From: a virus
Lineage: Duplodnaviria; Heunggongvirae; Uroviricota; Caudoviricetes
Strand: one strand, 5' to 3'
IMG/VR virus record: IMGVR_UViG_3300003310_000099
Location: 234,295 to 298,294 of that record
DNA: 64,000 bases
The notes beneath the pieces were generated by a model that worked only from the letters and a program-made list of their open reading frames with translations, made no database searches and was not told the DNA's origin. Of this stretch, positions 9,642-63,146 are shown one piece after another. How positions within the stretch are numbered: the stretch's first letter is position 1; every line of letters begins with the position of its first letter. Both the position numbers and the translations under genes were made by a program.

Positions 9642-9922
9642 AATGGAAAGTATATGAACCGACTCCTGGCCCGCCTTTAATGAACTGTAAAGGCGTCAGC
9701 TATATGGGTTATGGGATAAAACGCAATGGTCAGTTCCTTGATAAAGAAGATGACATTAAGGATGGCGATACGTTTGCTATACTTGGTGGAGAGGATTGGA
9801 TTGTAGAAAATAATAAGCGTTGGGGTAGGAACGGCACAACTTATTGTGCTTTAGAGTTTGCTAAAGACGACAGGAAATGTTGGGTGGCGGCTGGTTTCTG
9901 GTACTGCCCACAGAAAGCTTAG
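9638..9922 (+). CDS. hypothetical protein
   Basis: stop TAG lies within the repeat element. Confidence 0.65.
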   Translation: MKWKVYEPTPGPPLMNCKGVSYMGYGIKRNGQFLDKEDDIKDGDTFAILGGEDWIVENNKRWGRNGTTYCALEFAKDDRKCWVAAGFWYCPQKA

Positions 9923-9933
9923 CTGTACCGAGG
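9918..9933 (+). promoter_or_regulatory. CTTAGCTGTAC element copy 1
   Basis: exact 11-mer core. Confidence 0.8.
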
Positions 9934-10078
9934 GAGTTGAAATGAGACAGTTCATGTTTGGTTTGGTGGCGGGTCTTTTTATTGGCAGCGGAGTAACTTA
10001 CATCGTTGCTGATTATTATTGGCCTACAGTAAAAATCAGAGTTCAGAGTGGTCCTAATCCATTCTATGGAAGGTAAAA

Positions 10079-10612
10079 ATGAGTATTGTTGAAAATGCTG
10101 AGAAGATTGCACGCAAGGCTCACGAAGGACAGCTTCGTAAGTGGAGTGCTAACGTCCCCTATATCGTTCACCCGATTGGGGTTGCGGAAAAGGTTAAGAG
10201 TCTTTCTAATGTCGATGATATCGACATTGCAGCAGCACTTTTGCATGATGTTCTTGAAGATTGTGGGGAACATTGGGCATCCGTTATCGAGGAAGAAGTT
10301 GGTCGTGAAGTTCTTGACCTTGTGCGAGAATTAACGTTCCCCACCGAAGGCGAAGAGTGGGCTGGACGTTCGCGGGCTGAAAAGAATGTCATTCGTTTCG
10401 CACAAATGGAGCGAATGAGTTCCAAAGCCAAGAAGATCAAGATGGTTGACCGTTGGTATAATCTGAATGATATGAAGAATGCACCTTACAAGCTTATCAA
10501 GAAGACTGTTGATGAGTCTTGGAAGCTCCTTGAAATCTGCGGTGCCGCAGACAAGGAAATGGCAAAGGATTTGGAAGAGGCTATCAAGAATCTGGAAAGG
10601 CGGCTCAACTAA
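10079..10612 (+). CDS. HD-domain hydrolase, SpoT/Mesh1-like
   Basis: AHEGQLRK..PYIVHP, AALLHDVLED, IKMVDRWYN. Confidence 0.85.
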   Translation: MSIVENAEKIARKAHEGQLRKWSANVPYIVHPIGVAEKVKSLSNVDDIDIAAALLHDVLEDCGEHWASVIEEEVGREVLDLVRELTFPTEGEEWAGRSRAEKNVIRFAQMERMSSKAKKIKMVDRWYNLNDMKNAPYKLIKKTVDESWKLLEICGAADKEMAKDLEEAIKNLERRLN

Positions 10613-10953
10613 TGTATCACGAATTCCGAAACACGAATCGTAGCGGTTGGAAGTACACTTACACTGGTAAGGAATTACTTCCTTTTGCCAAGCTCTGTCT
10701 TGCCAACTACTACAAGGCAGAGTCTCAGGCGCGGGCAGAAATGTCCAAGCTGATTCAGGATATGCGTCGTAATCAGGATGATCCTGCACTGGTTCAGTGC
10801 CGTAAGGACATTGAATCTAATGGGTCTATGCGGGAAGAGTTGATGGTGTTCGTGCATGAGTTCACTCGTCAACCCGACCGTGAATATTATCTTGCTTTGG
10901 GCGATGTGGTATTCTTCGGGATGCTGGATACTCCAGAGGAGTTGATGAAGTAA
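10612..10953 (+). CDS. hypothetical protein
   Basis: coupled ORF. Confidence 0.7.
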   Translation: MYHEFRNTNRSGWKYTYTGKELLPFAKLCLANYYKAESQARAEMSKLIQDMRRNQDDPALVQCRKDIESNGSMREELMVFVHEFTRQPDREYYLALGDVVFFGMLDTPEELMK

Positions 10954-11108
10954 TGGAAGCCTCATTTTTAATGGCTATAATGACAATAGCATTGTCGTTG
11001 GTAGTTTTCAAAATGTTGGGGCTAATTTCAAAAGTTCTGAAAAAGAAGCCATCCCTTTATCAAGGGATTCCAGTCGAGTATTTGGAAAAATACCCGTTGA
11101 ACTGAAAG

Positions 11109-11124
11109 CTTAGCTGTACCTAGT
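11109..11124 (+). promoter_or_regulatory. CTTAGCTGTAC element copy 2
   Basis: exact core. Confidence 0.8.
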
Positions 11125-11126
11125 GG

Positions 11127-11155
11127 TTTACAAGTGTTGTTTTTCGTGGTAAAGT
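11127..11155 (+). promoter_or_regulatory. sigma70-type promoter
   Basis: TTTACA-N17-TAAAGT with TG extension. Confidence 0.55.
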
Positions 11156-11175
11156 AATACAAGGGAGGTTCTATT

Positions 11176-11481
11176 ATGGACAGTGATCTGTTGCAGTATC
11201 TTCGTAAGGGTAGTCAGCGAGTGCGGGCTGGTGTTCTGCTTGCCCGCAAGGTCAAGAAGAACAAGAAGGTCAAGGTGCTTGTCGGCTGGAGTAAGTGCAA
11301 GCTTACCGTCGATAAGTTCGACCCTGTTCGCGGCAAGGAAATTGCTGAAGCCCGTATTCAGCTTCGTCTGGAAGGCGATAATCGTAAGGTCAAGGTGCCG
11401 CATTCCATCAAGGCAAAGGTGGATGAATTCGTGCAGCGTGCGAAGCGGTATTACAAGACTGAGAACGTCAAGGTGGTCTAA
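11176..11481 (+). CDS. basic phage protein
   Basis: SD GGAGG; GWSKC...DKFD. Confidence 0.7.
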   Translation: MDSDLLQYLRKGSQRVRAGVLLARKVKKNKKVKVLVGWSKCKLTVDKFDPVRGKEIAEARIQLRLEGDNRKVKVPHSIKAKVDEFVQRAKRYYKTENVKVV

Positions 11482-11484
11482 AAT

Positions 11485-11598
11485 TAACCTTGTGCATATT
11501 CTGCTGGTGCAAGCCCAGAGTCGTGAAACTATCCTTGCCTTACGGCAGGCGATAAGCTAGTCTATATGGCGCGAAAGCCAAGAATATGCACAAGGTTA
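11485..11598 (+). ncRNA. candidate structured RNA (multi-way junction)
   Basis: perfect 18-bp closing inverted repeat enclosing 3-4 hairpins. Confidence 0.6.
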
Positions 11599-12758: not shown

Positions 12759-12922
12759 ATTTTTTAATGGAGAAGACTAATGGAAGACCATGAGAAGTGG
12801 TTGCAAGAAAATGAAGAAGCTCGAAAACTAGTTGAGCTAGGCTTATCCCAAGCGAAGGCGGGACAATTTGCAGAGAACCCACCAGACTTGGAAAAGGATT
12901 TAGAAGATTTGGAAGAGTAAAC

Positions 12923-12938
12923 CTTAGCTGTACCGAGT
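12923..12938 (+). promoter_or_regulatory. element copy 3 (ATG at +21)
   Basis: CTTAGCTGTACCGAGT-AAACC-ATG. Confidence 0.85.
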
Positions 12939-12943: not shown

Positions 12944-13153
12944 ATGAATGACTGGACTTTCGACAAAATCAGTGAAACCTGGCTTTGCGGTAAAGAAAGC
13001 TGTGGTTGTGGCGTATACAATGATGGTAAAGGCTGGGAAGGCAACGTGTCATGCTCAGACCTTATTGTAGGCATTGGTCCATTTACCACGAAGGAAGAGG
13101 CAATGACTGAATGCCTAAAACAATTAGAGGAATTAAAGGTGCGAAATGGTTGA
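12944..13153 (+). CDS. hypothetical protein (leaderless)
   Basis: ATG at +21 of element. Confidence 0.65.
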   Translation: MNDWTFDKISETWLCGKESCGCGVYNDGKGWEGNVSCSDLIVGIGPFTTKEEAMTECLKQLEELKVRNG

Positions 13154-18331: not shown

Positions 18332-18356
18332 TTACTTATATAGTATGTAGCGATAG

Positions 18357-18372
18357 CTTAGCTGTACCAAGT
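18357..18372 (+). promoter_or_regulatory. element copy 4
   Basis: exact core. Confidence 0.8.
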
Positions 18373-19548: not shown

Positions 19549-19731
19549 ATGGCACTAGAACTACAAATAGCCATATTAATTGTGGCTGGTGTTGTCGGCA
19601 GTTTCTTAATCGGGTTGGGAGCTTATCTTGGATTGAAAGATTCCAATAACCCAACTGGATTTCTTTTTGGGCTTGGCGGTTTAGGTCTAATCGTATTTGC
19701 TATTCTAGCCGTGATTGGTAAGATCAAATAG
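19549..19731 (+). CDS. 2-TM membrane protein
   Basis: two hydrophobic helices; stop abuts element. Confidence 0.65.
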   Translation: MALELQIAILIVAGVVGSFLIGLGAYLGLKDSNNPTGFLFGLGGLGLIVFAILAVIGKIK

Positions 19732-19747
19732 CTTAGCTGTACCGAGT
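19732..19747 (+). promoter_or_regulatory. element copy 5 (ATG at +21)
   Basis: exact core. Confidence 0.85.
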
Positions 19748-19752: not shown

Positions 19753-19926
19753 ATGATTACCTACAACCAAATTAAGAATCTGCCGAACAATCATCCTCTG
19801 GTCGAACAGTTTAAGCGAGAACTGCAAGACTTTGAGATGTATGAAAAGCGTATTGGCGACAATAATCCATTGGCGGATGAAGAATCCAAGGCTTATTTCG
19901 ACCGTTATATTGCGGGGGACCGATGA
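19753..19926 (+). CDS. 57-aa protein (leaderless; not in ORF track)
   Basis: MITYNQIKNL...; ATGA-coupled to next gene. Confidence 0.7.
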   Translation: MITYNQIKNLPNNHPLVEQFKRELQDFEMYEKRIGDNNPLADEESKAYFDRYIAGDR

Positions 19927-24087: not shown

Positions 24088-24429
24088 ATGATTACTCTGG
24101 CATGGGCAACCAAACGTCTGTTGATGGCTGAAATCTGCAATGAGGATGAAGGTGGCGTTACACCCGCTACCATTAGCTCTGCACTTGAAAGTGTGCGGTC
24201 GGGCTATGATCCAGCCCCCGAAGAAGAATTCGATATGAAGAAAGTCGAGGCTCAATTAACAGAATTGCTTGATGAGTTTCCTAATGGTCTTGCTAGTGAT
24301 TTTTTAGTTAAGGCGGATTGGGATATGCGATTTGAAATTGCACAGCGTAGGGAACGAATGAAGAGACGTGCTGCCAAAAGCTTAGCTGTACCGAGTGATG
24401 AGTTGGAACCTTCAAATCAGGGGGAATAA
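24088..24429 (+). CDS. hypothetical protein
   Basis: C-terminus reads through element (LAVPS). Confidence 0.65.
   Translation: MITLAWATKRLLMAEICNEDEGGVTPATISSALESVRSGYDPAPEEEFDMKKVEAQLTELLDEFPNGLASDFLVKADWDMRFEIAQRRERMKRRAAKSLAVPSDELEPSNQGE
24381..24396 (+). promoter_or_regulatory. element copy 6
   Basis: exact core. Confidence 0.8.
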
Positions 24430-24432: not shown

Positions 24433-25287
24433 ATGCGTCGTGGTTGCAATGGCGGCTGGCTTGGTGAAAATAAAGAAAAGCCTCATGAGGGCAGCTTCAT
24501 GGGGGTGAATTTAGGGGCTTCATTCTGTGCCGAGCATGAATGGGGCGTCAAGCGACTAAATCAATGCCTTGGTATCAATAGTGATAGTAAAGTCATGGGC
24601 ATTAAGCGTTACCATGTCGGCAAGGTTGCGGAAGGTGTTATTACCTTGATGGAAGAACCCAACGATGTGGCACTCATTATTGAGGAACCTTCGTCTTGGA
24701 ATAAGCGGGACAAGATTGACAACGTGAGTAGGGAACTCACTTTTTCTTCGTACTCCAAGACTCCTGATTTCGCTACTGCTTGGGACGAAAAGAGCCTTGG
24801 TATTCGTGTCAAGGGTGAAAAGAACATTAAGAAGTTGAAGCGAGTACATGAAGCTTTATTGAACAATGATGCGGCTGTTTGGTTGGGGGGTGGTCATGTT
24901 TTCGAGAATGCTGGTCTTGTGATCGGTATTGTCAGTTTGATCCCCAAGGAAATGAAAGATACGATGAAGGCCGCTCACGAAGATCGAAAAAAGCTTGAGG
25001 ATGCTTCGGAGAAGTGCGGCATCAAGCAGCGTATTGATGAAATTAATAACAATTTCAGCAAGGAACATCCTGGTTGTTATGATACTCCGCTTGGTTATTT
25101 TGCTTTAAGTCCGTCTTGGAAGCGGAGCGACATGAAGACTAAGCATCCAGTGATGTACTGGTTGAATCCACGGCATCAGGACAAGGTGAACTATGGTTGG
25201 TTCACCGTCGAACAGCTTGAGCAGTGGATTGAAGGCAAGGGACCGATCCCCATGACTAAGAAACAGATGAATGAAAGGCGACGATGA
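24433..25287 (+). CDS. hypothetical phage protein
   Basis: 284 aa ORF. Confidence 0.75.
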   Translation: MRRGCNGGWLGENKEKPHEGSFMGVNLGASFCAEHEWGVKRLNQCLGINSDSKVMGIKRYHVGKVAEGVITLMEEPNDVALIIEEPSSWNKRDKIDNVSRELTFSSYSKTPDFATAWDEKSLGIRVKGEKNIKKLKRVHEALLNNDAAVWLGGGHVFENAGLVIGIVSLIPKEMKDTMKAAHEDRKKLEDASEKCGIKQRIDEINNNFSKEHPGCYDTPLGYFALSPSWKRSDMKTKHPVMYWLNPRHQDKVNYGWFTVEQLEQWIEGKGPIPMTKKQMNERRR

Positions 25288-25464
25288 GTTATTATTCAAC
25301 TGCTGACGCAAAGTACAAGAGTGCTTGTGACCATATAAAAGAAGCGATTAGAGATTTGTCTGCCATTGTGGTTGATGAAGTGGATGGCTACAGCGACCAC
25401 AATGACTTCCATGTTATAGAAGCTTTGCAGGAACTAATCGCAATTAAGAAAAAGCTCGAATAAC

Positions 25465-25480
25465 CTTAGCTGTACCGAGT
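25465..25480 (+). promoter_or_regulatory. element copy 7
   Basis: exact core; AGGAGG begins at +21. Confidence 0.85.
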
Positions 25481-25496
25481 GATGCAGGAGGAACCA

Positions 25497-25823
25497 ATGC
25501 CTGATTTTAACATCGAAGCTTTTTACCACTGTATCACTGCTGAACGCTTCCGTACAGAAGTTAAGGGCAGCAAAGGCAATTACACCGTAGAGTTTGGTCC
25601 GTCACAGGGTCGATATGAATACGATTACACTTGTAATTGCCAAGCGTTTAAGTTTGGTAAAGGCAAGCCATGTAAACACATCGAGGAAGTAATTGATTCT
25701 GGCAAACGTTGCGGCTGGATGCAAGTAATTGATGGCGGTATACCGCTTGAACCCCTGTGCGATGGGCACAAGGTATGTCCAAGGTGTGGTAGTGACGTAA
25801 GTGTTGCACGGCACGCAGTTTAA
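25497..25823 (+). CDS. SWIM zinc-finger protein
   Basis: YTCNC...PCKH; CPRC. Confidence 0.8.
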   Translation: MPDFNIEAFYHCITAERFRTEVKGSKGNYTVEFGPSQGRYEYDYTCNCQAFKFGKGKPCKHIEEVIDSGKRCGWMQVIDGGIPLEPLCDGHKVCPRCGSDVSVARHAV

Positions 25824-26978: not shown

Positions 26979-27158
26979 ATGAGACGAGCAGAAATTAAAA
27001 CTAAAACTGTTACACAAAGCAATGATGCACATTGCCACAATCCACGGTCTAACGGGCATAAAAACCGTAAATCAATCAGGCGAAATAGCTCCAAGAGGCT
27101 AAGGCAATTAGTAAAACGGGATACCTTAGCTGTACTGAGTCAGGTACAGGAGAACTAA
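26979..27158 (+). CDS. small basic protein (59 aa; not in ORF track)
   Basis: CTAAATA-AACT-ATG; Arg/Lys-rich. Confidence 0.5.
   Translation: MRRAEIKTKTVTQSNDAHCHNPRSNGHKNRKSIRRNSSKRLRQLVKRDTLAVLSQVQEN
27125..27140 (+). promoter_or_regulatory. element copy 8
   Basis: CTTAGCTGTACTGAGT. Confidence 0.8.
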
Positions 27159-47326: not shown

Positions 47327-47523
47327 AACACCCAAACGAAAAACAGATGTTGTTCCACATGCTCGCTAGAATCGACTATAGCGGCACACTTCCAGAAGCC
47401 GAAATGGAACTAGGATACCTCTGTGGTGATTACTTTTTCCACAATTCCAAGTATTATGACAAAGCCAGAACATTGGTCAAACAACTGTGGCTTGAACTCC
47501 ATGAAATGGGTAAAGTAGCATGA
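47323..47523 (+). CDS. hypothetical protein (leaderless)
   Basis: ATG at +21. Confidence 0.65.
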   Translation: MKHPNEKQMLFHMLARIDYSGTLPEAEMELGYLCGDYFFHNSKYYDKARTLVKQLWLELHEMGKVA

Positions 47524-48723: not shown

Positions 48724-49455
48724 ATGGATTACTTATCAATCTGTGCAATTTTCAAACAAGAAAATCCATTCCTTAAAGAATGGCTCGATTACTACGCAAC
48801 AAAGGTAGATTCATTCTACCTTTGTTGCAATGACGAAGACGACGAAGAAGCCAAAAATATCATTAAACCCTATAATGTTCACTATTATCATAAGATTGGT
48901 GAAGAATTACAGATGGGGTTTTACAATGAGGTCTTAAAAGAGGCTAAATCCAGGTGGATAGCATTCATCGACCTGGATGAATTCATAGTTAATATAGACA
49001 ACCTACCAGCTTACGAGCAATACGGTGGTTTGGTATTAAATATGATTTGCTTCGGAGCTAATGGATTAATTGAATTCCCAATATCTCAGACTCAACAACT
49101 CACAAAGCGTCTGCCCGACTATTGCGGTTGGCCAGGGCATTCGTTTATTAAAAGTATCGTAAACCCTGATAAGGTATTGAGATACGGCAATCAGCCTCAC
49201 GCACCTATTTACAAGGATTCATTTGCGGTTAATACCAAGCATGAGATTGTGACGGGGCATTTCACTACGCCAGAAGTATCGGAGATAATGAGGATCAATC
49301 ATTATTATACTCGGAGCAGGAAGTGGTGGGAGATTAAGATGAATCGGGGTCATGCGGACAACAAGAATAATAAATACTACTGGCATGATTTCCTGACTAT
49401 CGAAAAGAACGCTACGGTAGACGATTATACCTTAGCTGTACCGAGTAGTCCATGA
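48724..49455 (+). CDS. glycosyltransferase, GT-A fold (GT92/GT2-like)
   Basis: LSICAIFKQE, EWLDY, FIDLDEF, KSIV, INHYYTRS. Confidence 0.85.
   Translation: MDYLSICAIFKQENPFLKEWLDYYATKVDSFYLCCNDEDDEEAKNIIKPYNVHYYHKIGEELQMGFYNEVLKEAKSRWIAFIDLDEFIVNIDNLPAYEQYGGLVLNMICFGANGLIEFPISQTQQLTKRLPDYCGWPGHSFIKSIVNPDKVLRYGNQPHAPIYKDSFAVNTKHEIVTGHFTTPEVSEIMRINHYYTRSRKWWEIKMNRGHADNKNNKYYWHDFLTIEKNATVDDYTLAVPSSP
49431..49446 (+). promoter_or_regulatory. element copy 19 (ATG at +21)
   Basis: exact core. Confidence 0.85.
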
Positions 49456-49844
49456 ACAACACTCTTTATGAAGTCACCGATGCTTTCTTGGAAGACTATT
49501 CTCTCCCTTACCATATTAACAATGGTAGTTGTGAAGAATGGGCCAATGAAGTTTTTGACAAGCTAAAAGACACTGACCATCAGGTTGAAATTTGGGCAAC
49601 TCCGTTTGGATTTGCTGACACTACGCACGTTTTTCTGCGTATTGACGGCAAGTTCTATGATGCTGAATGCCTTTCAGGTGTCGAAGACCACATGGATTTG
49701 CCTCTGTTTAAGAATTTAATGCCGAAACGTCAGTCTGTTTGGCTGGAAGATCATAATGGCCGCAAGCCCATTGTTGAAAACAAACGGGACATGACTGATG
49801 AAGCAGTGGCAGAATATCGAAAAGAAAATGGAATTACATGGTAA
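49452..49844 (+). CDS. putative papain/transglutaminase-like Cys-His-Asp protein
   Basis: NGSCEEWA, HVFL, YDAE. Confidence 0.55.
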   Translation: MNNTLYEVTDAFLEDYSLPYHINNGSCEEWANEVFDKLKDTDHQVEIWATPFGFADTTHVFLRIDGKFYDAECLSGVEDHMDLPLFKNLMPKRQSVWLEDHNGRKPIVENKRDMTDEAVAEYRKENGITW

Positions 49845-50944: not shown

Positions 50945-51118
50945 TAATGAACCGTATTGTAAATGCAATCGCAAATGCCACTATTCCAGTTTCTTTTGAG
51001 ATTTGGGTTATTCGTAACCTAATTATAACGGCATGTGCGGTTCTCTGCATCTGTCTAAATGCAGATAGATCAATCTTTGTGGCAATGGGTGTACTCGCAA
51101 TCATCATTGCCTGGAAAG

Positions 51119-51134
51119 CTTAGCTGTACCGAGT
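51119..51134 (+). promoter_or_regulatory. element copy 20 (ATG at +21)
   Basis: exact core. Confidence 0.85.
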
Positions 51135-51139: not shown

Positions 51140-51409
51140 ATGATTAACCAGAAAGTACAAGCCACTGTTTGGTACTACGTTCCTAACATCTATGGCGATG
51201 ACGTAGACAAAGACTTCCTTGGCGATATCATTGGCACTGTTGAATCAATTGCTCCCTACAACCCGAACATTCTGCGAATCAGGGTTGAGAAATTCAGACC
51301 GAATTTCATCAATGCTGATTGGACTGATGATCTGAGTCCTATTAAATTTGCGTGCCATTACAAAGATGGCTACCTGGAGGAATGGGATTACAATGCGCAG
51401 CGAGTATGA
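51140..51409 (+). CDS. hypothetical protein (leaderless)
   Basis: ATG at +21. Confidence 0.65.
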   Translation: MINQKVQATVWYYVPNIYGDDVDKDFLGDIIGTVESIAPYNPNILRIRVEKFRPNFINADWTDDLSPIKFACHYKDGYLEEWDYNAQRV

Positions 51410-51587: not shown

Positions 51588-51872
51588 ATGTACATTATCC
51601 GAGTCTTTACAGGCGATGAAACCCTCACCTATAACTTCCAGAACACTTCTTGGGGTAAAGGTGGCGACGATGCACTAGGAATTGTTGTATTCCTGGGGGC
51701 GTTCAAGAAATACTACGAGAATCATAGACAACCCGCATCGGTTCGTATTATGAACGATAATGGGCTATTCTATAACCCTAAACTGAACAAGTACGTCCAT
51801 ACGGATAATTGGAAAGAAATCTCCATTCCGTTGAATGACGCCGCAGAAAAAGAGCTTAGCTGTACCGAGTGA
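51588..51872 (+). CDS. hypothetical protein ending in LSCTE
   Basis: ORF. Confidence 0.6.
   Translation: MYIIRVFTGDETLTYNFQNTSWGKGGDDALGIVVFLGAFKKYYENHRQPASVRIMNDNGLFYNPKLNKYVHTDNWKEISIPLNDAAEKELSCTE
51855..51870 (+). promoter_or_regulatory. element copy 21 (ATG at +21)
   Basis: exact core. Confidence 0.85.
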
Positions 51873-51875: not shown

Positions 51876-52541
51876 ATGCACTACAAAATCCTAATTGACG
51901 AACAGAAGTTTGATACTTTCTTCAACTTTCTTCCCGAACTGGAGAAGGATGAAGTTTACTATCTTTCTCTGTTTGGTCGGCATAAGTATGCTCAGTCTAT
52001 GCCGAATCTGAGAGACAATCAGCTTGTTCGCTTCACTTCCTCCAAGGAAAACTTGAAGGAAAAAATCTTGAGGCTCCAATGCTCCATTGGTGGCTACAAA
52101 CGCGATGGCGTCGATGTTCCTCAAGAAGCCTTGGCTCTGTATATTGCGGTTAATCCCCGTAATAAGATCAAGGCGAACAAGGAATTGCTCGTTGAATTAG
52201 CCAAGTGCTTTGCGGATGGTAAGTCTGACTTTAATCCGCTCTCTTTGGCTAACACCGCAATTCATCAAGCTACCAATCGCAAGGTCTTTGTCGATTTTGA
52301 TTATGATAACATTGAGCCGCAAACTCATTTGAGCAAAATCAATGAAGTGCTGCCCAATAATGCTTACAAAATCCTCAAAACCCGTGGTGGTTTCCATCTG
52401 CTGGTTTTGATTGACAAAGCACCTAAGTCTCAGTGGTTCAAGGCTTTAGCAGCTTTGGAAGGCTGCGACGTTAAGGGCAGTAATACCATGATTCCTGTCC
52501 CTGGTTGTACTCAAGGTGGCTTCTGCCCTTACATTCAGTGA
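51876..52541 (+). CDS. putative AEP/prim-pol-like protein
   Basis: VFVDFD, KTRGGFH, distal D. Confidence 0.5.
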   Translation: MHYKILIDEQKFDTFFNFLPELEKDEVYYLSLFGRHKYAQSMPNLRDNQLVRFTSSKENLKEKILRLQCSIGGYKRDGVDVPQEALALYIAVNPRNKIKANKELLVELAKCFADGKSDFNPLSLANTAIHQATNRKVFVDFDYDNIEPQTHLSKINEVLPNNAYKILKTRGGFHLLVLIDKAPKSQWFKALAALEGCDVKGSNTMIPVPGCTQGGFCPYIQ

Positions 52542-53290: not shown

Positions 53291-53595
53291 TGGACATGGA
53301 CAAATTGTTCCTTGCTCAGACTATTCGCCATCTTCATGAAGCCTATGATAAGATGGGCGAGGCTCTGAAAGGTGCGCAGGCCGCAAAGAATGAAAAGCTT
53401 TTTGGCCTCATTTACCAGAAGCAATGGGAAATTGCGGAATTGGCGGCTACACTGATTGCTGAAACTAGACAACCGCAAATTGAATGCGATGATTGTGGTC
53501 ATAAGAATAATGACCTGATTACCAAGGGCGATCATCACGGCGGGCAAAAGACCGTTTGTCGTGATCGTAACCTATGTCACTCCAGGGGCGGATAG
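53290..53595 (+). CDS. hypothetical protein
   Basis: stop abuts element. Confidence 0.6.
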   Translation: MDMDKLFLAQTIRHLHEAYDKMGEALKGAQAAKNEKLFGLIYQKQWEIAELAATLIAETRQPQIECDDCGHKNNDLITKGDHHGGQKTVCRDRNLCHSRGG

Positions 53596-53611
53596 CTTAG
53601 CTGTACCAAGT
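53596..53611 (+). promoter_or_regulatory. element copy 22
   Basis: exact core. Confidence 0.8.
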
Positions 53612-54232: not shown

Positions 54233-54430
54233 GTGAAAATGTCAATTTTTTGGCAAGAAACCAAGGTTCCTGATGGCGTCTATGGTGGCATCCAAAGTGG
54301 TTATGAAGTCGAAATCCTGGTCAATGATAAAAGGGTGAGGTTCCATACCGAACGTGGACTAAGGGGAATAAATATCCCTGTGACCGTGACCATTAAGGAT
54401 GGAGACTTAATCCGACTCGACAAACCTTAG
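54233..54430 (+). CDS. hypothetical protein
   Basis: stop within element. Confidence 0.6.
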   Translation: MKMSIFWQETKVPDGVYGGIQSGYEVEILVNDKRVRFHTERGLRGINIPVTVTIKDGDLIRLDKP

Positions 54431-54441
54431 CTGTACCAAGT
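54426..54441 (+). promoter_or_regulatory. element copy 23
   Basis: exact core. Confidence 0.8.
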
Positions 54442-55577: not shown

Positions 55578-55764
55578 ACTCATTGATTTCCTTACATTCG
55601 ATGAACTACTTGGAAAGTTAAAGGAACACGCCAAGGAAATTCATCCAGATAAGGAATTCATACCCTTTTGGCGTCTACTTCTCCGTGGCAACGAGTTAGT
55701 GATTCGTGCAACCGTAAGCGATGGCAAGGTTGGTCCTCAAGAGCCAGTAGAGTTAGTCCGAAAC

Positions 55765-55780
55765 CTTAGCTGTACCGAGT
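55765..55780 (+). promoter_or_regulatory. element copy 24 (ATG at +21)
   Basis: exact core. Confidence 0.85.
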
Positions 55781-55785: not shown

Positions 55786-55965
55786 ATGAACACTTGCACT
55801 GGCAGCGGAAAGCTAAGCTCTGTATCAGACTTTAACGTGCTTACCAAGCACGCTAATTGTCCTGTCTGTCACCAAAAGGTACGCATCACTATACCTGATA
55901 GGAAGATGCACGCTAATCGTGCAAAATTCGCAAAGCATAGGAGGGACAATGGACGCGACAATTAA
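55786..55965 (+). CDS. 59-aa zinc-binding protein (leaderless; not in ORF track)
   Basis: CTGSG..CPVC..KH. Confidence 0.65.
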   Translation: MNTCTGSGKLSSVSDFNVLTKHANCPVCHQKVRITIPDRKMHANRAKFAKHRRDNGRDN

Positions 55966-56164
55966 CCTGGAAAAGCGTAAGCTAACTGTAGGCCAAATGG
56001 CTGAACTGTGGTCCGAAATTGATGATTGTGGCTACAAGCTGCGTAATCTGAACATTCAGACTCAGAATTCAGGGGAATTCTACAAGATCGTGGACCGTCT
56101 AGTTGAATTGCAAAAGAAACTCAAGTGGCATGAAGTGGCCGAAAAGCTTAGCTGTACGGAGTAA
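55949..56164 (+). CDS. hypothetical protein ending in LSCTE
   Basis: SD AGGAGG. Confidence 0.65.
   Translation: MDATINLEKRKLTVGQMAELWSEIDDCGYKLRNLNIQTQNSGEFYKIVDRLVELQKKLKWHEVAEKLSCTE
56147..56162 (+). promoter_or_regulatory. element copy 25 (ATG at +21)
   Basis: CTTAGCTGTACGGAGT. Confidence 0.85.
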
Positions 56165-56167: not shown

Positions 56168-56629
56168 ATGAACACTTACGAAGTCACTCCTATCGCCCGT
56201 GAACTCATGAATCAGCATGGCCTTGGCCACTGGACCTTCCAGTATGATCGGGCCAAACGTCGTGCAGGTTTGTGCCAACATCGTCGGCAGACTATCTCCC
56301 TCAGTGTGAATTACGTTCATCGTAATGACATTGTGGATATCAAGGACACCATTCTTCACGAAATCGCCCATGCTCTGGTTGGCCCTGGTCATGGCCATAA
56401 TAATGTCTGGAGAGCGATGTGCGTCAAGATTGGTGCAAAGCCTCAACGGTGCTGCGGTGAGCATGTCGATATGCCCAAGGGACGTTGGCAGGCTCTTTGT
56501 CGTGGTTGTGGTAAAACCTTCCACAAGCATCGTCGTCCCAAGTATATGACTGGAACTCATTGCCGTAAGTGTGGGCCAGTCTTGGGCGCTCTGGTTTGGG
56601 GTGGTGGATATGTCGAAATACAGGGGTAG
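56168..56629 (+). CDS. SprT-like zinc metalloprotease
   Basis: RRAGLC, HEIAH, GH..W, C-terminal zinc ribbon. Confidence 0.85.
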   Translation: MNTYEVTPIARELMNQHGLGHWTFQYDRAKRRAGLCQHRRQTISLSVNYVHRNDIVDIKDTILHEIAHALVGPGHGHNNVWRAMCVKIGAKPQRCCGEHVDMPKGRWQALCRGCGKTFHKHRRPKYMTGTHCRKCGPVLGALVWGGGYVEIQG

Positions 56630-56642: not shown

Positions 56643-56688
56643 GAGCAACTAGAGGGGCATAATGTTCTCTAGTTGCCTCGCCCCTTTA
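56643..56688 (+). terminator. hairpin/terminator
   Basis: GCAACTAGAG / CTCTAGTTGC inverted repeat. Confidence 0.55.
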
Positions 56689-56690
56689 AC

Positions 56691-56706
56691 CTTAGCTGTA
56701 CCGAGT
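56691..56706 (+). promoter_or_regulatory. element copy 26 (ATG at +21)
   Basis: exact core. Confidence 0.85.
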
Positions 56707-56711: not shown

Positions 56712-56930
56712 ATGAAACTAAATGAAAATCAACTAAACAGCCTACGCCGTAATATCGAAAAGGATATTGCAGACGCTACTGGACTTGAAATTGATAACGT
56801 CGAACAACGATGGGACCACTATCGAGCATGGTTCTCCTATGAGAACCGCAACGATAAGCTGATTCGTGGTTACATTGATTTTAAGGCCCATTTCTGTGAG
56901 AATAACCTGGAAGATTTTACTGAGGTGTAA
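56712..56930 (+). CDS. hypothetical protein (leaderless)
   Basis: ATG at +21. Confidence 0.65.
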   Translation: MKLNENQLNSLRRNIEKDIADATGLEIDNVEQRWDHYRAWFSYENRNDKLIRGYIDFKAHFCENNLEDFTEV

Positions 56931-57852: not shown

Positions 57853-58007
57853 TTAGAATAGAAAAACGATACCCGAATCATCCTGAATCCCCTTATCTGG
57901 TCATTAACCAAAAATCACCAGATAAGGGGCAAATTATCGCAACCATCATCCCTCATACTTTCCTTGAGGATGAAGATAAAATCGCCCTGGACAAGTGGCT
58001 CAAAAAC

Positions 58008-58023
58008 CTTAGCTGTACCGAGT
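58008..58023 (+). promoter_or_regulatory. element copy 27 (ATG at +21)
   Basis: exact core. Confidence 0.85.
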
Positions 58024-58028: not shown

Positions 58029-58262
58029 ATGAACGACAACGATTACTTCAATCTGATGCGGAAAGAAACTGCCCAAAAGTTGCTCAGTGAGACTGCCATT
58101 ATTGCAGCCGCACTGGAAGACTTGGCCAATGACCGTAATGTAAGCGAAGCACAACGAACGCTTCGTGACCACATTGATGGTAATTGGCACGCTGTTGTAG
58201 TGGGCAACTGTACATCAGTGGGCCATCTTCTATACGAAGATTGTCCTGAACAGGAGAATTAA
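58029..58262 (+). CDS. hypothetical protein (leaderless)
   Basis: ATG at +21. Confidence 0.65.
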   Translation: MNDNDYFNLMRKETAQKLLSETAIIAAALEDLANDRNVSEAQRTLRDHIDGNWHAVVVGNCTSVGHLLYEDCPEQEN

Positions 58263-58463
58263 ATGGACCTGGATGATATTCCGCAAAACGAGATTGATTT
58301 GCCAATGGGCGTTACGGAAGTTGAGTACGATACAGAAGCTGAAATGAAGGCTTTTATCGACGGGCTTCAGTTCGCTGATGACATTGACGTGAACAATAGC
58401 AATTATTTCGTGCGGAATGGCAAATTCATCGTGCGTGTTGTCGTCGGTGATTGGGACGAATAA
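58263..58463 (+). CDS. acidic small protein
   Basis: SD AGGAG. Confidence 0.65.
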   Translation: MDLDDIPQNEIDLPMGVTEVEYDTEAEMKAFIDGLQFADDIDVNNSNYFVRNGKFIVRVVVGDWDE

Positions 58464-58465
58464 AC

Positions 58466-58481
58466 CTTAGCTGTACCAAGG
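58466..58481 (+). promoter_or_regulatory. element copy 28
   Basis: exact core. Confidence 0.8.
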
Positions 58482-58728: not shown

Positions 58729-58995
58729 ATGGATTTGCCGAAGCTGAAAGATTATGGCAATTCGCCTTCGACCCGATTCCTGAATATCGGACCCGTTACG
58801 GTCTGGTTCAGTTATGAAACGCCTATTGCGTTTCGTGTGGACGGTGGACCGCAACGAGTGCTGGACTATAAGGGCAGTCGCACCACTTTCCGCCATCTGA
58901 ATATGATTGATGGCGGCAATAAGGATGCTCGTCTGTCTCAGACTGAATTTCAGAAGCTGTGGGAAAAGGAAGTGGTGCTGAGGGCGAAAGCTTAG
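58729..58995 (+). CDS. hypothetical phage protein
   Basis: WFSYETPIAF..SRTTFRHLN. Confidence 0.7.
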   Translation: MDLPKLKDYGNSPSTRFLNIGPVTVWFSYETPIAFRVDGGPQRVLDYKGSRTTFRHLNMIDGGNKDARLSQTEFQKLWEKEVVLRAKA

Positions 58996-59006
58996 CTGTA
59001 CCAAGT
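58991..59006 (+). promoter_or_regulatory. element copy 29
   Basis: exact core; precedes non-coding cassette. Confidence 0.8.
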
Positions 59007-59149: not shown

Positions 59150-59153
59150 AAAG

Positions 59154-59169
59154 CTTAGCTGTACCAAGT
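59154..59169 (+). promoter_or_regulatory. element copy 30
   Basis: exact core. Confidence 0.8.
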
Positions 59170-59206: not shown

Positions 59207-59920
59207 ATGGCAAAGAAGAATGACCGTCCGACGTTTGCAGTTCCTCAAGCAATTCTGCCGTCCGTTGAGCGATTCATCGCTGCAAAGCAAGTCGCTGAAA
59301 TGGCCGAAAGCCGTATGAAGGCCGAGGAAGGCATCGTCAAGGAAACCATGATTGATAGCTTTGCGGAAAGCATCGTCAAGCTGCGTTGCAAGCCCACCAA
59401 TCCGCGTATGACCATCGCCAAGGATGGTAAACCCGATATTGAGTGCTTGTTCCAAGTTCAGTCCAAGTTCTATCCCCAGGCCGCACAAGGGGATGGACCA
59501 GTCAGCGAACGCCTCAAGGCTGCTTTCGTTGCCGCTGGTGTCTCTGACGAAACCGCCGATAAGCTGCTCAAGTTTGAAGTGGCTTGTGAAGATAAAACCA
59601 CTTTGCGACCATTCAGCGAATTGATGAATGGTGCGCCCGTTGAGCAAGAATTGGCTGGTCGGGTTATGAAGCTCTTACTCGAAAACTTCACCGATCAGGA
59701 ACGCGCTTTGATCCTCCAACCAAGTGAGAAGATCGAAGTCAAGGATGGTTTCTTTGAACGCCTTGGTATGTACGTCAAGGATAAGGCGGAAGCCTTGGCT
59801 GCGATTCGGGTTATGAAGCCTGTTAGCTTTATGTCTCACATGAAGCTGGGCCTCAGTGAAACGCCGCAAGGTCGCCTCAACCGCCTCTTTGAGTACGCCA
59901 AGAGCATGATTTGTGGCTAA
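59207..59920 (+). CDS. hypothetical protein
   Basis: SD GGGGAG; followed by terminator. Confidence 0.75.
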   Translation: MAKKNDRPTFAVPQAILPSVERFIAAKQVAEMAESRMKAEEGIVKETMIDSFAESIVKLRCKPTNPRMTIAKDGKPDIECLFQVQSKFYPQAAQGDGPVSERLKAAFVAAGVSDETADKLLKFEVACEDKTTLRPFSELMNGAPVEQELAGRVMKLLLENFTDQERALILQPSEKIEVKDGFFERLGMYVKDKAEALAAIRVMKPVSFMSHMKLGLSETPQGRLNRLFEYAKSMICG

Positions 59921-59976: not shown

Positions 59977-60447
59977 ATGAACCTAAAAGATGAAATCACC
60001 CGTATTGAACAAGAAATGGCCAATATGGTTAATAAAGCCATGAATAGGAGCAATATGAACGAAGATTACGAAGAAAACATCTTTGAAGATGACGACCTCA
60101 CTCCAGATGAGGATGGTTTACTCAATCGTGGCGAAATGACTTTGGCCGAATTTGACGATGCAAATGTCCCCGTTGATATTTGGCTTGAAGAATTGAATAA
60201 AGATAATGCCGATGATGATTTGGCCATCTATAATGCAGGCTATCGCTATTCCCTTCGCTGTGGCAATTATATGCCGCGTAAAGGTAGCGTAAGTGAAGGT
60301 GCCGTCAATGCCTTTGGCAAAGATAAAGAAACAATGCAGAAGGCAATTAACAAATACATTCTGCCTTTGTATCAGACTGCCATTAGCAAAATCACTAAGA
60401 TGGCTGAGACAGGCAACGGCGATCTGTACTATTGGAGCAACGACTAA
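59977..60447 (+). CDS. acidic hypothetical protein
   Basis: ORF; degenerate element tail upstream. Confidence 0.65.
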   Translation: MNLKDEITRIEQEMANMVNKAMNRSNMNEDYEENIFEDDDLTPDEDGLLNRGEMTLAEFDDANVPVDIWLEELNKDNADDDLAIYNAGYRYSLRCGNYMPRKGSVSEGAVNAFGKDKETMQKAINKYILPLYQTAISKITKMAETGNGDLYYWSND

Positions 60448-60450
60448 TAC

Positions 60451-60466
60451 CTTAGCTGTACTGAGT
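60451..60466 (+). promoter_or_regulatory. element copy 31 (ATG at +21)
   Basis: CTTAGCTGTACTGAGT. Confidence 0.85.
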
Positions 60467-60471: not shown

Positions 60472-60627
60472 ATGAACACCCTCGATAATTGGTTCAAAAA
60501 GATCGAAGAGTATAAGCAAAAAGCAAAGCTGGGTACTCTCACCAAGGAAGAACAAGAAGATTGGGATTTCATGGAGGAAAAGCTTGAAGATTGGCGCTCC
60601 GATTATTACGGCATGGAGAATTACTAA
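60472..60627 (+). CDS. 51-aa protein (leaderless; not in ORF track)
   Basis: TAATG-coupled to next gene. Confidence 0.65.
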   Translation: MNTLDNWFKKIEEYKQKAKLGTLTKEEQEDWDFMEEKLEDWRSDYYGMENY

Positions 60628-60834: not shown

Positions 60835-61236
60835 ATGTGGTTTCTTTATCACCTTGATAATCAAGGTATAATTTTGGACAAAGTTGACTTGGAACTGCAT
60901 CACGCCGATTGGGTAAATAACAACAATAAGGCTATTTTCCCAAAAATGGGAAAGGGCGATAGCGTAGTAGCTACCCAAAATGATATGCCTGTTGGTGTCT
61001 CTAATTGGGAAACTACCCTCTGTTGCCCAAAGTGCCTAAAGTACCACTACACATATCAGGAGTGTAAAGTGAAGAATATCGCCATTGACCCCATTGAACA
61101 AACTATCAAGTTAGGCGTCATTACGCTTGGCATTATTGCAGTGCTGGCAATCGGCAGTACCGTACTCTTTATCGTTTTGCTGATTAGCCTGTTCTCCATC
61201 CTGTTCGGCGGCATTGTCCTGGCCCTTATACCTTAG
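60835..61236 (+). CDS. membrane-anchored protein
   Basis: C-terminal TM; stop within element. Confidence 0.6.
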   Translation: MWFLYHLDNQGIILDKVDLELHHADWVNNNNKAIFPKMGKGDSVVATQNDMPVGVSNWETTLCCPKCLKYHYTYQECKVKNIAIDPIEQTIKLGVITLGIIAVLAIGSTVLFIVLLISLFSILFGGIVLALIP

Positions 61237-61247
61237 CTGTACCAAGT
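61232..61247 (+). promoter_or_regulatory. element copy 32 (ATG at +21)
   Basis: exact core. Confidence 0.85.
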
Positions 61248-61252: not shown

Positions 61253-61477
61253 ATGAAACTCAAAGTCAACGATGTTATCCTGGTTCATGGCTTCGTCATG
61301 CTCAGTGGGCTGGAAGATGGACAGAAATACCGTGTCCATTCTACCCCTGATTATTACCAAAACCCAACCTATCAGTTTACCAAAGCAAAAGGTAAAAAGG
61401 TTGTCTGCCGTCACTATGCAAGCAGTGTCGATGCCATGATTCAGGAAAATAACCTTAACCGAATTGAGGTGCTGTAA
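61253..61477 (+). CDS. hypothetical protein (leaderless)
   Basis: ATG at +21. Confidence 0.65.
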   Translation: MKLKVNDVILVHGFVMLSGLEDGQKYRVHSTPDYYQNPTYQFTKAKGKKVVCRHYASSVDAMIQENNLNRIEVL

Positions 61478-61743
61478 TGGACGAAATTTTCTTCACGGTG
61501 GTTGACCCAATCAGCGAAGGTCTGGAAAACCGTATCTATATCGACATTAACAAGGAAGATGGCTTTGCCACCGTTGCAGGCACGTCAATCGACGCTCAAC
61601 AGTTGGCCGAATTGGGCATCCTTTTGTTTGCCATTGCCAACCAGATTGGCAAGCCTGACCTCGATTCGTGCAATGAATTGCTCGATGGCTATAACATTCC
61701 TCTCCCCAAGAATGCACTCATGGAGGTTGCTACTGATGCCTAG
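61477..61743 (+). CDS. hypothetical protein
   Basis: coupled ORF. Confidence 0.6.
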   Translation: MDEIFFTVVDPISEGLENRIYIDINKEDGFATVAGTSIDAQQLAELGILLFAIANQIGKPDLDSCNELLDGYNIPLPKNALMEVATDA

Positions 61744-61963
61744 AATCTATACGTCAGCCAATGACCCCATTGACTTCTGCCGCCGCTGCTTCCCCAAGGA
61801 ATCCACGGCAAATAAACTGTACGCCAACGTAGGTGATGGTCCCGACAAGCGTGGCAATTGCTTCGATTATGACGCCGACCATCCCAATTACGAAGAAACC
61901 GATTACAAATGCTATAGCTGCCGTAAGCTGTTGACCGAAAAGGACAACTATGCTCTGTCCTAA
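61736..61963 (+). CDS. zinc-binding small protein
   Basis: CRRC..CYSC; SD GGAGG. Confidence 0.6.
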   Translation: MPRIYTSANDPIDFCRRCFPKESTANKLYANVGDGPDKRGNCFDYDADHPNYEETDYKCYSCRKLLTEKDNYALS

Positions 61964-62225
61964 TGTTACAACACAACCAGACCGCGATGAAGATGGTAAA
62001 CTTGTCTTCAAAAAGCGGCCCCATAAAATCATGGGCAAAGGTGTCGTCACTTGCACCAAATGTAATACTTCTTGGTGCTGCTGCGAATGCGCAGTCGAAT
62101 GCGATGCACTCGATCATCACTATTTTGATATGATTTATGAACATGAAGGCAAAACACCACCAGTCTACGAAGTGGTGTGCTGCAAGTGTTCGGGTAATAA
62201 ACCATCGTGGACCGACCGCGATTAA
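61950..62225 (+). CDS. Cys-rich small protein
   Basis: multiple CxxC pairs. Confidence 0.6.
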   Translation: MLCPNVTTQPDRDEDGKLVFKKRPHKIMGKGVVTCTKCNTSWCCCECAVECDALDHHYFDMIYEHEGKTPPVYEVVCCKCSGNKPSWTDRD

Positions 62226-62226
62226 C

Positions 62227-62239
62227 CTTAGCTGTACCA
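62227..62239 (+). promoter_or_regulatory. element copy 33 (truncated; ATG at +13)
   Basis: CTTAGCTGTACCA-ATG. Confidence 0.7.
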
Positions 62240-62419
62240 ATGAGAAAAGATCAACCACTGTATCGTCAATACCTGGAAGCTGTTATCAAGTCACTCCTTG
62301 CCGAACGTGAATTAAACGGCAAGGGTGATTTTGATAAGATTGAAGGCATAGATTTTCAAGGCAACTCTGCCTATTATATGCCGTACAACATTAAAGAGGC
62401 TATCAATGAAAGACTTTAA
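62240..62419 (+). CDS. hypothetical protein
   Basis: ORF after element. Confidence 0.55.
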   Translation: MRKDQPLYRQYLEAVIKSLLAERELNGKGDFDKIEGIDFQGNSAYYMPYNIKEAINERL

Positions 62420-62557
62420 TTCGGGCGAACGCTTGGCCCTGGAATGGGTGCAACAGCAGCTGGAAGACCTCCTTGATAAAAAGGATATTACCGATAAGGA
62501 AGTCAAAATCGTCTCGGAACGTATCTGCCGACGAATTGACAAAATCTGGAGCGAACA

Positions 62558-62776
62558 GTGAACGAGTTAATCTTCCAAGATGCAGTCAGTGGCCTCACCG
62601 AATACTATCCATTTTTAATGGATGAGTCACTGGTAGGCGAATTTGAATCCTGTATCAAATACCCCAATTCAGGCAATAACCAACTAGATTACCAAAACGT
62701 CAGGGATCAATTAGAAAAAATCTGCCGTAAATTTGAATATCTTTTGATCTACAAAGAAGTAAAGAGGATGCCGTGA
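62558..62776 (+). CDS. hypothetical protein
   Basis: GTGA-coupled. Confidence 0.55.
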   Translation: MNELIFQDAVSGLTEYYPFLMDESLVGEFESCIKYPNSGNNQLDYQNVRDQLEKICRKFEYLLIYKEVKRMP

Positions 62777-62936
62777 GCGAAAAACAAGAATTCAATGATG
62801 TAGTCGAAGCTATCCAGTTTAGATTGGAACAACTGAATAGCATGGGCTATAAAATGACCGATCAATTCGTTGCCCGATTGATTGCTAAATACTGCGTTGA
62901 CGTGGCACCAATCATCGTCCGAGAAGGAATTAAAGA

Positions 62937-63128
62937 ATGAAAAAAATTCACGCTGGCCTCACAATCCTACTCAAATACGGCGATGGCCATATTTGCGCAG
63001 AACATGACGAAATCTTTGCAGGTAGCGATAAAGCTACCCCCGAAACTATGTCCAAAGAAGATTTAGACGCACTTGAAGAACTCGGCTGGTCCTGGCATGA
63101 TACCGATAGCTGGCACCATTTTGTCTAA
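62937..63128 (+). CDS. small phage protein
   Basis: AEHDEI...LEELGW. Confidence 0.7.
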   Translation: MKKIHAGLTILLKYGDGHICAEHDEIFAGSDKATPETMSKEDLDALEELGWSWHDTDSWHHFV

Positions 63129-63130
63129 AC

Positions 63131-63146
63131 CTTAGCTGTACCAAGT
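63131..63146 (+). promoter_or_regulatory. element copy 34 (ATG at +21)
   Basis: exact core. Confidence 0.85.

Follow-up and report, generated by a model that had tools for sequence, protein, structure and literature searches.

Which function does a short sequence serve that recurs in one orientation between the genes of a huge phage? We addressed this question in a window of 64,000 nucleotides, bases 234295-298294 of the 373,404-bp IMG/VR record IMGVR_UViG_3300003310_000099 (Caudoviricetes; G000 below), in which the sequence CTTAGCTGTAC is present in 34 exact copies, confined to the + strand, compared with 0.01 expected from shuffled sequences. An earlier note on this DNA had listed 34 start positions, all on the + strand, and had proposed a phage-specific promoter that may double as a crossover site for gene cassettes. 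Each of these positions holds the exact sequence and the orientation was confirmed for 34 of 34. The analysis suggests that the element is probably a phage-specific promoter heading more than 100 small gene units, with host core RNA polymerase (RNAP) and a phage factor as its likely reader.

The element, its junctions and its starts

Alignment of the copies in the record gave a full element of 20 bp, WWAS-CTTAGCTGTACC-N-AGT, so that the repeat described in the earlier note stood while its length of 16 bp did not. Upstream positions -4 to -1 are W, W, A (A in 108 of 110 copies) and S, and within the element CTTAGCTGTACC takes up positions 0-11 and AGT positions 13-15; beyond the element a pyrimidine is found at +20 in 100 and a purine at +21 in 104 of the 110 copies, with a T bias at +22. 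Self-complementarity, as read from the sequence, is confined to AGCT-T-AGCT and GTAC, with no arms of 20-30 bp. Allowing the 16-mer up to 3 mismatches added no window copy to the 34. The spacing between neighbouring window copies runs, as described before, from 163 bp (58991 to 59154) to about 5.4 kb (5434 bp, 12923 to 18357). The whole 373-kb record carries 110 copies on the + strand and 2 on the - strand; copy density per 10 kb is 3-6 in the window and rises to 24 at record positions 310-320 kb, and the final copy is found at 325182.

The copies had been said to lie at gene junctions, and indeed no + strand reading frame runs through the interval from -90 to +120 at any of the 34 window copies; record-wide, a frame passes through 9 of 110 copies as compared with 54% of random positions. 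Genes upstream end in or against the motif, their stop being the TAG of CTTAGC in 18 cases, an abutting TAG in 12, AGTAA or AGTGA in 8 and an ATGA overlap in 5. The 48 nt upstream of the motif fold at -12 kcal/mol or below in 30 of 110 copies as against 11 of 508 control gene ends, with the strong hairpins concentrated beyond 300 kb (24 of the 57 copies there). Some of these hairpins are canonical terminators with a GC stem and a T-run. A hairpin family, CAGGGT-TCGCCC-ACCCTG, is located 2-10 nt upstream of many copies at record 313-323 kb and at 303-311 kb of a related phage genome, G004; it has no T-run, its loop is conserved and its stems vary compensatorily between the two phages. Since upstream genes end in or against the motif and a hairpin precedes it in the densest part, the region can be described as a chain of terminator-promoter-gene units. 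At the copy at record position 151816, a canonical terminator, the motif and an ATG fit within about 45 nt, leaving the motif as the only possible promoter for the gene at this site.

An ATG opening the next open reading frame (ORF) without a ribosome site is placed exactly at +21 in 25 of the 110 record copies, 16 of them among the 34 of the window, while no other ATG offset exceeds 7 copies and about one is expected per position. The one-gene unit that had been singled out at 36607-36831 is exact at both ends. In other copies, positions +19 to +25 often read TTGTAAC, followed by a leader of 20-30 nt that contains an ACTGGAG-type site and leads to an ATG at +33 to +54. Transfer RNA (tRNA) genes start at +21, +23 and +26 after the copies at record positions 124467, 44112 and 43692, respectively, and further copies begin 4 nt past the 3' end of a tRNA or of the transfer-messenger RNA (tmRNA). 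The unit between 58991 and 59154, previously taken for an RNA unit, is ORF-less (59012-59153), and the RNA in it amounts to a tRNA-like acceptor/T-arm minihelix at 59096-59146 that scores 24.7 bits, below the Rfam gathering score of 29; the fold of the unit is not distinctive (z -0.9). Similar ORF-less units are present at record 302564-302884, 305226-305417 and 305802-305959 and are partly conserved in contig L120.

The conserved block carries neither a -35 element nor TATAAT nor TATAAATA, in keeping with the claim that it matches neither the sigma70 nor the T4 late consensus, and real sigma70-type promoters of this genome look different. Strong promoters of that type are few and read TTGACA/TTTACA-N17-cgTGgTAnAnT (window 11127-11155 and 18375-18403; record 155055, 192325 and 196456); three sigma70-type promoters sit 3 nt behind a motif copy, in tandem.

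Given the coupling of orientation, the position at junctions, the upstream terminators, the pyrimidine-purine pair at +20/+21, an ATG at fixed distance in three genomes, the use ahead of tRNA genes and the concerted change between related phages (see below), we infer a promoter with a start at +21, which supports the phage-specific promoter of the earlier note; other explanations would hardly yield this combination. Transcription would begin with a purine that lies 21 nt downstream of the first C in CTTAGC. Counted from this predicted start, the conserved block would span about -25 to -6 and the (C)TGTACC shared across the clade about -16 to -10, and a -10-like hexamer, TA-C-C-N-A, would be positioned 7 nt upstream of the start in a promoter without a -35. 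Copies with ATG at +21 would produce leaderless mRNAs; the remaining ones would give a leader of 10-45 nt with a GGAG-type ribosome site, or else a tRNA or small RNA gene.

A second class of putative promoter, TATATA or TAAATA followed after 4-5 nt by the ATG of a real ORF, occurs in the record in 10-16 cases at the peak spacing compared with 1-3 elsewhere. Judged from this spacing, it would likewise give leaderless mRNAs, and promoter-adjacent leaderless starts would therefore be a general habit of this phage. Two further candidate classes were rejected: other frequent 10-12-mers proved to be tandem repeats within one gene of 1877 aa, and an apparent TTACA-N13-AGCTAAGCT class is the reverse complement of the motif. 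The 1877-aa ORF (record 360853-366486) holds tandem repeats of about 100 bp, the source of the next commonest 12-mers. The two - strand copies, at record 321933 and 324262, have extended flanks in common and would yield RNAs of about 40 nt or serve as something else. Each of them faces a GC hairpin that is flanked on either side by A/T runs and has the look of a bidirectional terminator.

Lineage versions of the motif and its putative reader

A scan of the whole genome and of relatives, which the earlier note had named as a check, gave the record count above and lineage versions of the motif in two relatives, G004 and G006. Sediment metagenome contigs carrying the 16-mer are 65-87% identical to G000, with the motif kept exactly and the flanks diverged. 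Megablast of 20 kb against deposited phages returned no match, a motif scan of IMG/VR returned single chance matches only, and a literature search for the motif strings returned unrelated primers and no relevant context. G004 was missed by the IMG/VR scan because its motif differs at one base; it was found by a protein-based search (326 reciprocal best hits, median amino-acid identity 67%). Its version, CTTAGTTGTACC, is present in 98 + and 2 - strand copies of the form W-T-A-S-C(T/C)TAGTTGTACC-A-A, with T at position 5 in every copy, the 3' AGT replaced, a density ramp as in G000 and ATG at +21 in 23 of 98 copies. In the more distant G006 the version yTAAY-CTGTACC occurs 144 times, 11 of them on the other strand, with C/A at +20/+21 and ATG in the +21 register in 44 of 144 copies; the register is thus that of G000 in both relatives, although their flanks and genes differ. 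For 20 of 20 orthologous genes that have the motif in both G000 and G004, the G000 copies carry C at position 5 and NAG(T/G), and the G004 copies carry T and the other 3' part; the motif has thus changed in concert between related phages at 20 orthologous genes. Since the three versions share it, (C)TGTACC, which would span about -16 to -10 relative to the predicted start, is the family's invariant core, and the parts on either side of it are lineage-specific. New here are the promoter family, the way it is conserved and co-varies among phages of a 570-590-kb clade, and the scale of leaderless starts.

The reader had been expected to be an RNAP or a sigma factor encoded outside the window, and a search for RNAP, sigma and recombinase genes had been suggested. 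The sigma part held, since the record encodes three sigma-70-family proteins outside the window: sigA (275 aa; record 157512-158339) and sigB (159 aa; record 16864-17343), each with regions 2 and 4, and sigC (110 aa; record 96335-96667, complement) with region 2 only. Genes like sigB and sigC occur in G000, G004 and G006, and sigA diverges fast, with 56% identity as compared with 79-88% for neighbouring genes. A sigma70-type promoter heads the ClpX-phosphatase-GGACT-sigA operon and TTGACA-N17-TATTAT precedes sigB; a motif copy separates ClpX from the sigA operon in G004 and contig L200. Neither presence or absence nor region 2.4 variants tied sigA to the motif. For the RNAP part no signal was found: neither G000 nor G004 nor the complete 572-kb G006 has a match to families of T7-type or multisubunit RNAP (PF00940, PF00623, PF00562), the PF00940 search being of unproven sensitivity as it gave no positive among control genomes, and three further relatives (G007-G009) gave no such signal either. 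Searching long frames for DFDGD revealed no polymerase motif. A DFDGD in the window ORF 32485-33003 was rejected as an RNAP fragment, the ORF having 172 aa and no family match, consistent with chance, and sequence searches against the PDB with four large orphan proteins found no polymerase among them; one has beta-propeller repeats. Given that no RNAP signal was found and that three sigma genes are present, host core enzyme plus a phage specificity factor is the most economical reader. The three sigma-70-family proteins would be the candidates for this factor, possibly joined by a helper in contact with the upstream, lineage-specific half of the motif. As to the TATATA/TAAATA class, the region-2-only sigC is a candidate reader.

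Minimal sigma factors have a precedent in phage T4, whose late promoters are read by gp55 and have TATAAATA at -10 in a conserved block of 8 bp. Like these, the promoter proposed here lacks a -35 and would presumably be read by host core enzyme with a small phage sigma, of which the 110-aa sigC with region 2 only is an example; the separate TATATA/TAAATA class resembles TATAAATA, and a relative has a T4-like portal. In contrast, the TGTACC core is unrelated to TATAAATA and the conserved block measures 20 bp instead of 8. A hexamer close to the start codon is known in Deinococcus-Thermus, where TANNNT 6-7 bp before ORFs drives leaderless genes with the start at the A of ATG (PMC12340547). The arrangement found here, TACCNA, 7 nt and then ATG, is similar. 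An ORF-adjacent -10 with leaderless mRNA has been reported for Thermus phage phiYS40 too. The difference is that the hexamer of the present phage lies within a longer phage-specific block and that the pattern belongs to the genome of the phage.

Several points weigh against a promoter read by a phage sigma factor. The start site is placed by sequence statistics, and a contiguous block without -35 that reaches -25 is unusual for sigma-70-family holoenzymes and closer to promoters of single-subunit RNAPs. The motif is also transcribed, because upstream genes end inside it, and this leaves room for a role at the RNA level. SigA retains a -35 reading helix like that of primary sigma factors, and tblastn found no sigA homolog in G006, which keeps the motif core. 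The negative searches for a polymerase are limited by the poor sensitivity of Pfam in this clade, as no record has a match to DNA_pol_B (family B), although G006 encodes a DnaE-type pol III alpha, and terminase matches are weak only, and by truncation of the record: judged by the 590-kb source contig of G004, about 200 kb of gene content lies outside it. Together, the low sensitivity and the missing 200 kb keep a divergent phage polymerase in play.

Such an enzyme, an unrecognised phage-encoded RNAP of single-subunit or otherwise non-canonical type, possibly delivered with the virion, would account for the contiguous block from about -25 to -6, the preference for RTRA at the start and the lack of a -35. 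The T7/T3/SP6 group has phage-specific single-block promoters, with a block from -17 to +6, that co-evolve with their polymerase, and in the present family, too, some 20 contiguous bp just ahead of the start are conserved, certain initial transcribed sequences are preferred, identical copies are many and all copies change in concert between related phages. It differs in that the block is further upstream, the copy number is about 6-fold higher and neither the record nor the complete relative has a T7-like polymerase match. Large ORFs of G006 without family match (846, 874 and 1525 aa), as well as the part of the genome outside the record, would offer room for such a gene. On the other hand, none of the three RNAP families matched in G000, G004 or the complete G006, no long frame contains the DFDGD polymerase motif, the clade conserves several sigma genes, and the distance from hexamer to ATG suits the geometry of a bacterial holoenzyme. 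We therefore regard a phage polymerase as unlikely.

Possible RNA-level action or recombination, and cassette systems

The finding that upstream ORFs end within the motif, so that it is transcribed, together with the fixed distance to ATG in three genomes, fits a motif that acts on RNA, either as a processing site at which polycistronic transcripts are cut into units, some with a 5' AUG, or as a translation signal at a fixed distance from the AUG. ATG is at +21 in only 23-31% of copies, however, and because others precede tRNA genes or Shine-Dalgarno (SD)-led genes at variable distance, a general translation signal is ruled out. Furthermore, some copies directly follow canonical terminators, where read-through RNA would be scarce, the pyrimidine-purine pair at +20/+21 is the usual signature of initiation, and the motif has no secondary structure beyond the 4-bp AGCT repeat. 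We know of no protein ribonuclease with a specificity of 20 nt. Action at the RNA level thus appears very improbable.

The earlier note had likened the region to PeSL cassettes and to integron arrays and had suggested the element as a crossover site. PeSL cassettes of T4-type phages are terminator-promoter units that flank ORFans in hyperplastic regions (Arbiol et al. 2010, PMC2839356; Comeau et al. 2014, PMC4122927); their promoters match the host sigma70 consensus, and recombination between copies and mini-circles have been shown for them (PMC2839356, PMC4122927). The likeness holds for the layout, in that both systems have dozens to more than 100 short units with an upstream stop, a stem-loop terminator, a promoter, a ribosome site and a small ORFan, concentrated in a hyperplastic region in which gene content differs between relatives. 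It does not hold for the promoter type, as the present motif is not a sigma70 consensus; in addition, a strong upstream hairpin is found at only 30 of 110 copies and a quarter of the units have neither leader nor ribosome site. Recombination between copies and mini-circles are features of PeSLs, whereas here a single indel joint was cleanly resolved, in a terminator.

The motif-rich part of the record is the most variable one, hyperplastic and mosaic among relatives. At 240-320 kb, 51 of 202 genes (~25%) are common to G004, as compared with 55-85% elsewhere in the record, and gene order is mosaic in sediment contigs L063 and L153. In L128 homology to G000 starts at motif copy 4 (core 18357), and L153 has an unrelated gene joined upstream at motif copy 8 (core 27125); homology to G000 also begins at the motif at the right-hand junction of L153. 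These observations and the PeSL precedent would favour a motif that is primarily a recombination site, moving cassettes in an integron-like (site-specific) or PeSL-like (homologous) manner. Any whole-gene replacement would break at a junction, however, where the motif sits anyway. Gene turnover is also high at the motif-free 234-244 kb. Breakpoints at the element in related genomes, named as a check in the earlier note, were not enriched: within the region, synteny is broken at 24 of 24 informative junctions with the motif and at 53 of 56 without it, a comparison that is uninformative as a test of enrichment because nearly every junction in the region is a break. The only cleanly resolved indel, the lack in L069 of two units (323685-324210), has its joint in a shared terminator hairpin and not in the motif.

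Co-oriented short gene units split by a recurring element do recall an integron attC array. The tyrosine integrase family PF00589 had no match in the truncated 373-kb record, control sequences being matched, and no resolvase was found in the record. Nor does the motif contain an attC-like imperfect inverted repeat, and in place of the one shared Pc of integrons every unit has its own promoter-like element, which also heads tRNA genes; the integron analogy was therefore dropped. The breakpoints above do not mark out the motif in particular as the crossover site. Since recombination would also leave the fixed ATG at +21 and the use ahead of tRNA genes unexplained, a primary role in it is most improbable. 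Under the promoter interpretation, gene shuffling by homologous recombination across the repeated terminator-promoter-leader sequence would be a by-product, and a recombination role of the motif is possible only in this sense. A joint interpretation, in which phages of the 570-590-kb clade express much of their accessory genome from a TGTACC-core promoter read not by a standard sigma holoenzyme but by a minimal sigma and a new DNA-binding partner or by an unrecognised polymerase, combined with leaderless translation and cassette exchange, seems doubtful; in it, leaderless translation may be favoured by phage initiation factors (IF3 and an IF1-like protein in a relative).

Copies in the window, genome setting and significance

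The window copies of the motif and the window sites of the TATATA/TAAATA class are collected in the table.

Table. Motif copies and second-class sites in the window (window coordinates; offsets counted from the first base of the core; SD, leader with ribosome site; leaderless, leaderless geometry)
Feature	Core	Span (strand)	Layout	Start (offset)	ORF	Remarks
Copy 1	9918	9914..9933 (+)		ATG 9942 (+24)		Upstream ORF 9638..9922 ends at TAG in motif
Copy 2	11109	11105..11124 (+)	Tandem sigma70-type promoter	ATG 11176		TTTACA 11127-11132, TGgTAAAGT ending 11155
Copy 3	12923	12919..12938 (+)	Leaderless	ATG (+21)	12944..13153
Copy 4	18357	18353..18372 (+)	Tandem sigma70-type promoter	ATG 18420		TTTACA 18375-18380, TAGAAT 18398-18403
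Copy 5	19732	19728..19747 (+)	Leaderless	ATG (+21)	19753..19926	Upstream TAG adjoins motif
Copy 6	24381	24377..24396 (+)	SD	ATG 24433 (+52)	24433..25287	GGGGGAA
Copy 7	25465	25461..25480 (+)	Start ambiguous	GTG 25479 or ATG 25482	25479..25823
Copy 8	27125	27121..27140 (+)	SD	ATG 27161 (+36)
Copy 9	29218	29214..29233 (+)	SD	ATG 29254 (+36)
Copy 10	31602	31598..31617 (+)	SD	ATG 31635 (+33)
Copy 11	33782	33778..33797 (+)	SD	ATG 33816 (+34)		Upstream stop overlaps motif 3' end (+15)
Copy 12	36586	36582..36601 (+)	Leaderless, one-gene unit	ATG (+21)	36607..36831	TAG of ORF adjoins copy 13
Copy 13	36832	36828..36847 (+)	SD	ATG 36878 (+46)		363-aa product
Copy 14	38610	38606..38625 (+)	Leaderless	ATG (+21)	38631..38918
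Copy 15	39346	39342..39361 (+)	SD	ATG 39396 (+50)
Copy 16	41205	41201..41220 (+)	Leaderless	ATG (+21)	41226..41897
Copy 17	42698	42694..42713 (+)	SD	ATG 42748 (+50)
Copy 18	47302	47298..47317 (+)	Leaderless	ATG (+21)	47323..47523
Copy 19	49431	49427..49446 (+)	Leaderless	ATG (+21)	49452..49844	Upstream gene ends in ATGA overlap
Copy 20	51119	51115..51134 (+)	Leaderless	ATG (+21)	51140..51409
Copy 21	51855	51851..51870 (+)	Leaderless	ATG (+21)	51876..52541	G004 ortholog also has motif with ATG at +21
Copy 22	53596	53592..53611 (+)	SD	ATG 53632 (+36)
Copy 23	54426	54422..54441 (+)	Start uncertain	GTG 54460 or TTG 54488
Copy 24	55765	55761..55780 (+)	Leaderless	ATG (+21)	55786..55965
Copy 25	56147	56143..56162 (+)	Leaderless	ATG (+21)	56168..56629
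Copy 26	56691	56687..56706 (+)	Leaderless	ATG (+21)	56712..56930	48 nt upstream fold at -20 kcal/mol
Copy 27	58008	58004..58023 (+)	Leaderless	ATG (+21)	58029..58262
Copy 28	58466	58462..58481 (+)		ATG 58490 (+24)
Copy 29	58991	58987..59006 (+)	ORF-less 163-bp unit			+21 is G (59012)
Copy 30	59154	59150..59169 (+)	SD	ATG 59207 (+53)	59207..59920	Motif precedes G004 ortholog too
Copy 31	60451	60447..60466 (+)	Leaderless	ATG (+21)	60472..60627
Copy 32	61232	61228..61247 (+)	Leaderless	ATG (+21)	61253..61477
Copy 33	62227	62223..62242 (+)	Atypical 3' end AATG	ATG inside motif (+13), none at +21		Downstream start unclear
Copy 34	63131	63127..63146 (+)	Leaderless	ATG (+21)	63152..63313
Second class		6589-6601 (+)	TATATA/TAAATA
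Second class		28533-28545 (+)	TATATA/TAAATA
Second class		46336-46349 (+)	TATATA/TAAATA
Second class		18342-18329 (-)	TATATA/TAAATA

The record has 41% G+C, nearly all of its genes on the + strand, about 58 tRNA genes, a tmRNA and an amber-suppressor tRNA. The latter, with a CTA anticodon, is at record 167507-167581 (L009 7507-7581), and TAG is otherwise used as a stop, including the TAG within the motif. Stop-codon recoding as a cause of the scarcity of large ORFs was rejected, as reading through TAG, TGA or TAA brought no meaningful gain. The record is labelled 'provirus' and is probably a huge-phage genome truncated by provirus trimming. G004 (390 kb, also labelled 'provirus') is the part from base 200,021 on of a 590,099-bp contig of the Joint Genome Institute, and the 10 kb before its cut look like more of this phage: ORFans on the + strand are interspersed with genes for IF3, DnaJ, a Cpn10-like protein and metabolism. 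G006 is a complete genome of 572,167 bp with terminal repeats and encodes a T4-like portal, a tail sheath and an intein-split DnaE polymerase; no portal, sheath or DnaE-type polymerase was seen among the scanned large ORFs of the 373-kb record, in which no search aimed at them was made.

Further genes were observed in passing. A relative encodes IF3, an IF1/eIF-1A-like protein, an EF-Tu domain-2 protein and CsrA (L201 4170-4751; L199 20044-20262, 19247-19618 and 3843-4031). An intein with a LAGLIDADG endonuclease is found in a 1052-aa protein of the structural region (record 344114-347272), and the G006 inteins reside in the DnaE polymerase and the T4-like portal (187398-189992, 476937-479477). 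The record also encodes a DUF5591 protein with an archaeosine/queuine transglycosylase-type domain, possibly a DNA or tRNA base modifier (326365-327975), an enzyme of the CCA-adding/poly(A) polymerase family (332642-334159, - strand) and a Ro60-like vWA protein (28860-30368) that is 94% identical in G004.

To our knowledge, metagenomes are almost the only source of what is known of huge phages, and we know of nothing on the timing of their gene expression. Three genomes of one clade with a common promoter core (98-144 copies each), lineage-specific flanks and a predicted start provide a handle on operon structure that needs sequence only, and the core is likewise a handle on the regulon of the phage's own sigma factors. 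Annotation of start codons gains as well: small genes that begin at +21 and lack a ribosome site are numerous and easily mis-called. Short, exact and orthogonal to sigma70, the motif could make a compact expression switch together with its reader, if the latter is identified. Leaderless mRNAs for about a quarter of one promoter class, along with a second leaderless class, would be unusual for a phage. IF3 normally works against leaderless mRNAs, and the phage IF3 of the relative is of interest against the leaderless gene set for this reason. With such a gene set and phage initiation factors side by side, a link between the take-over of transcription and that of translation becomes testable.

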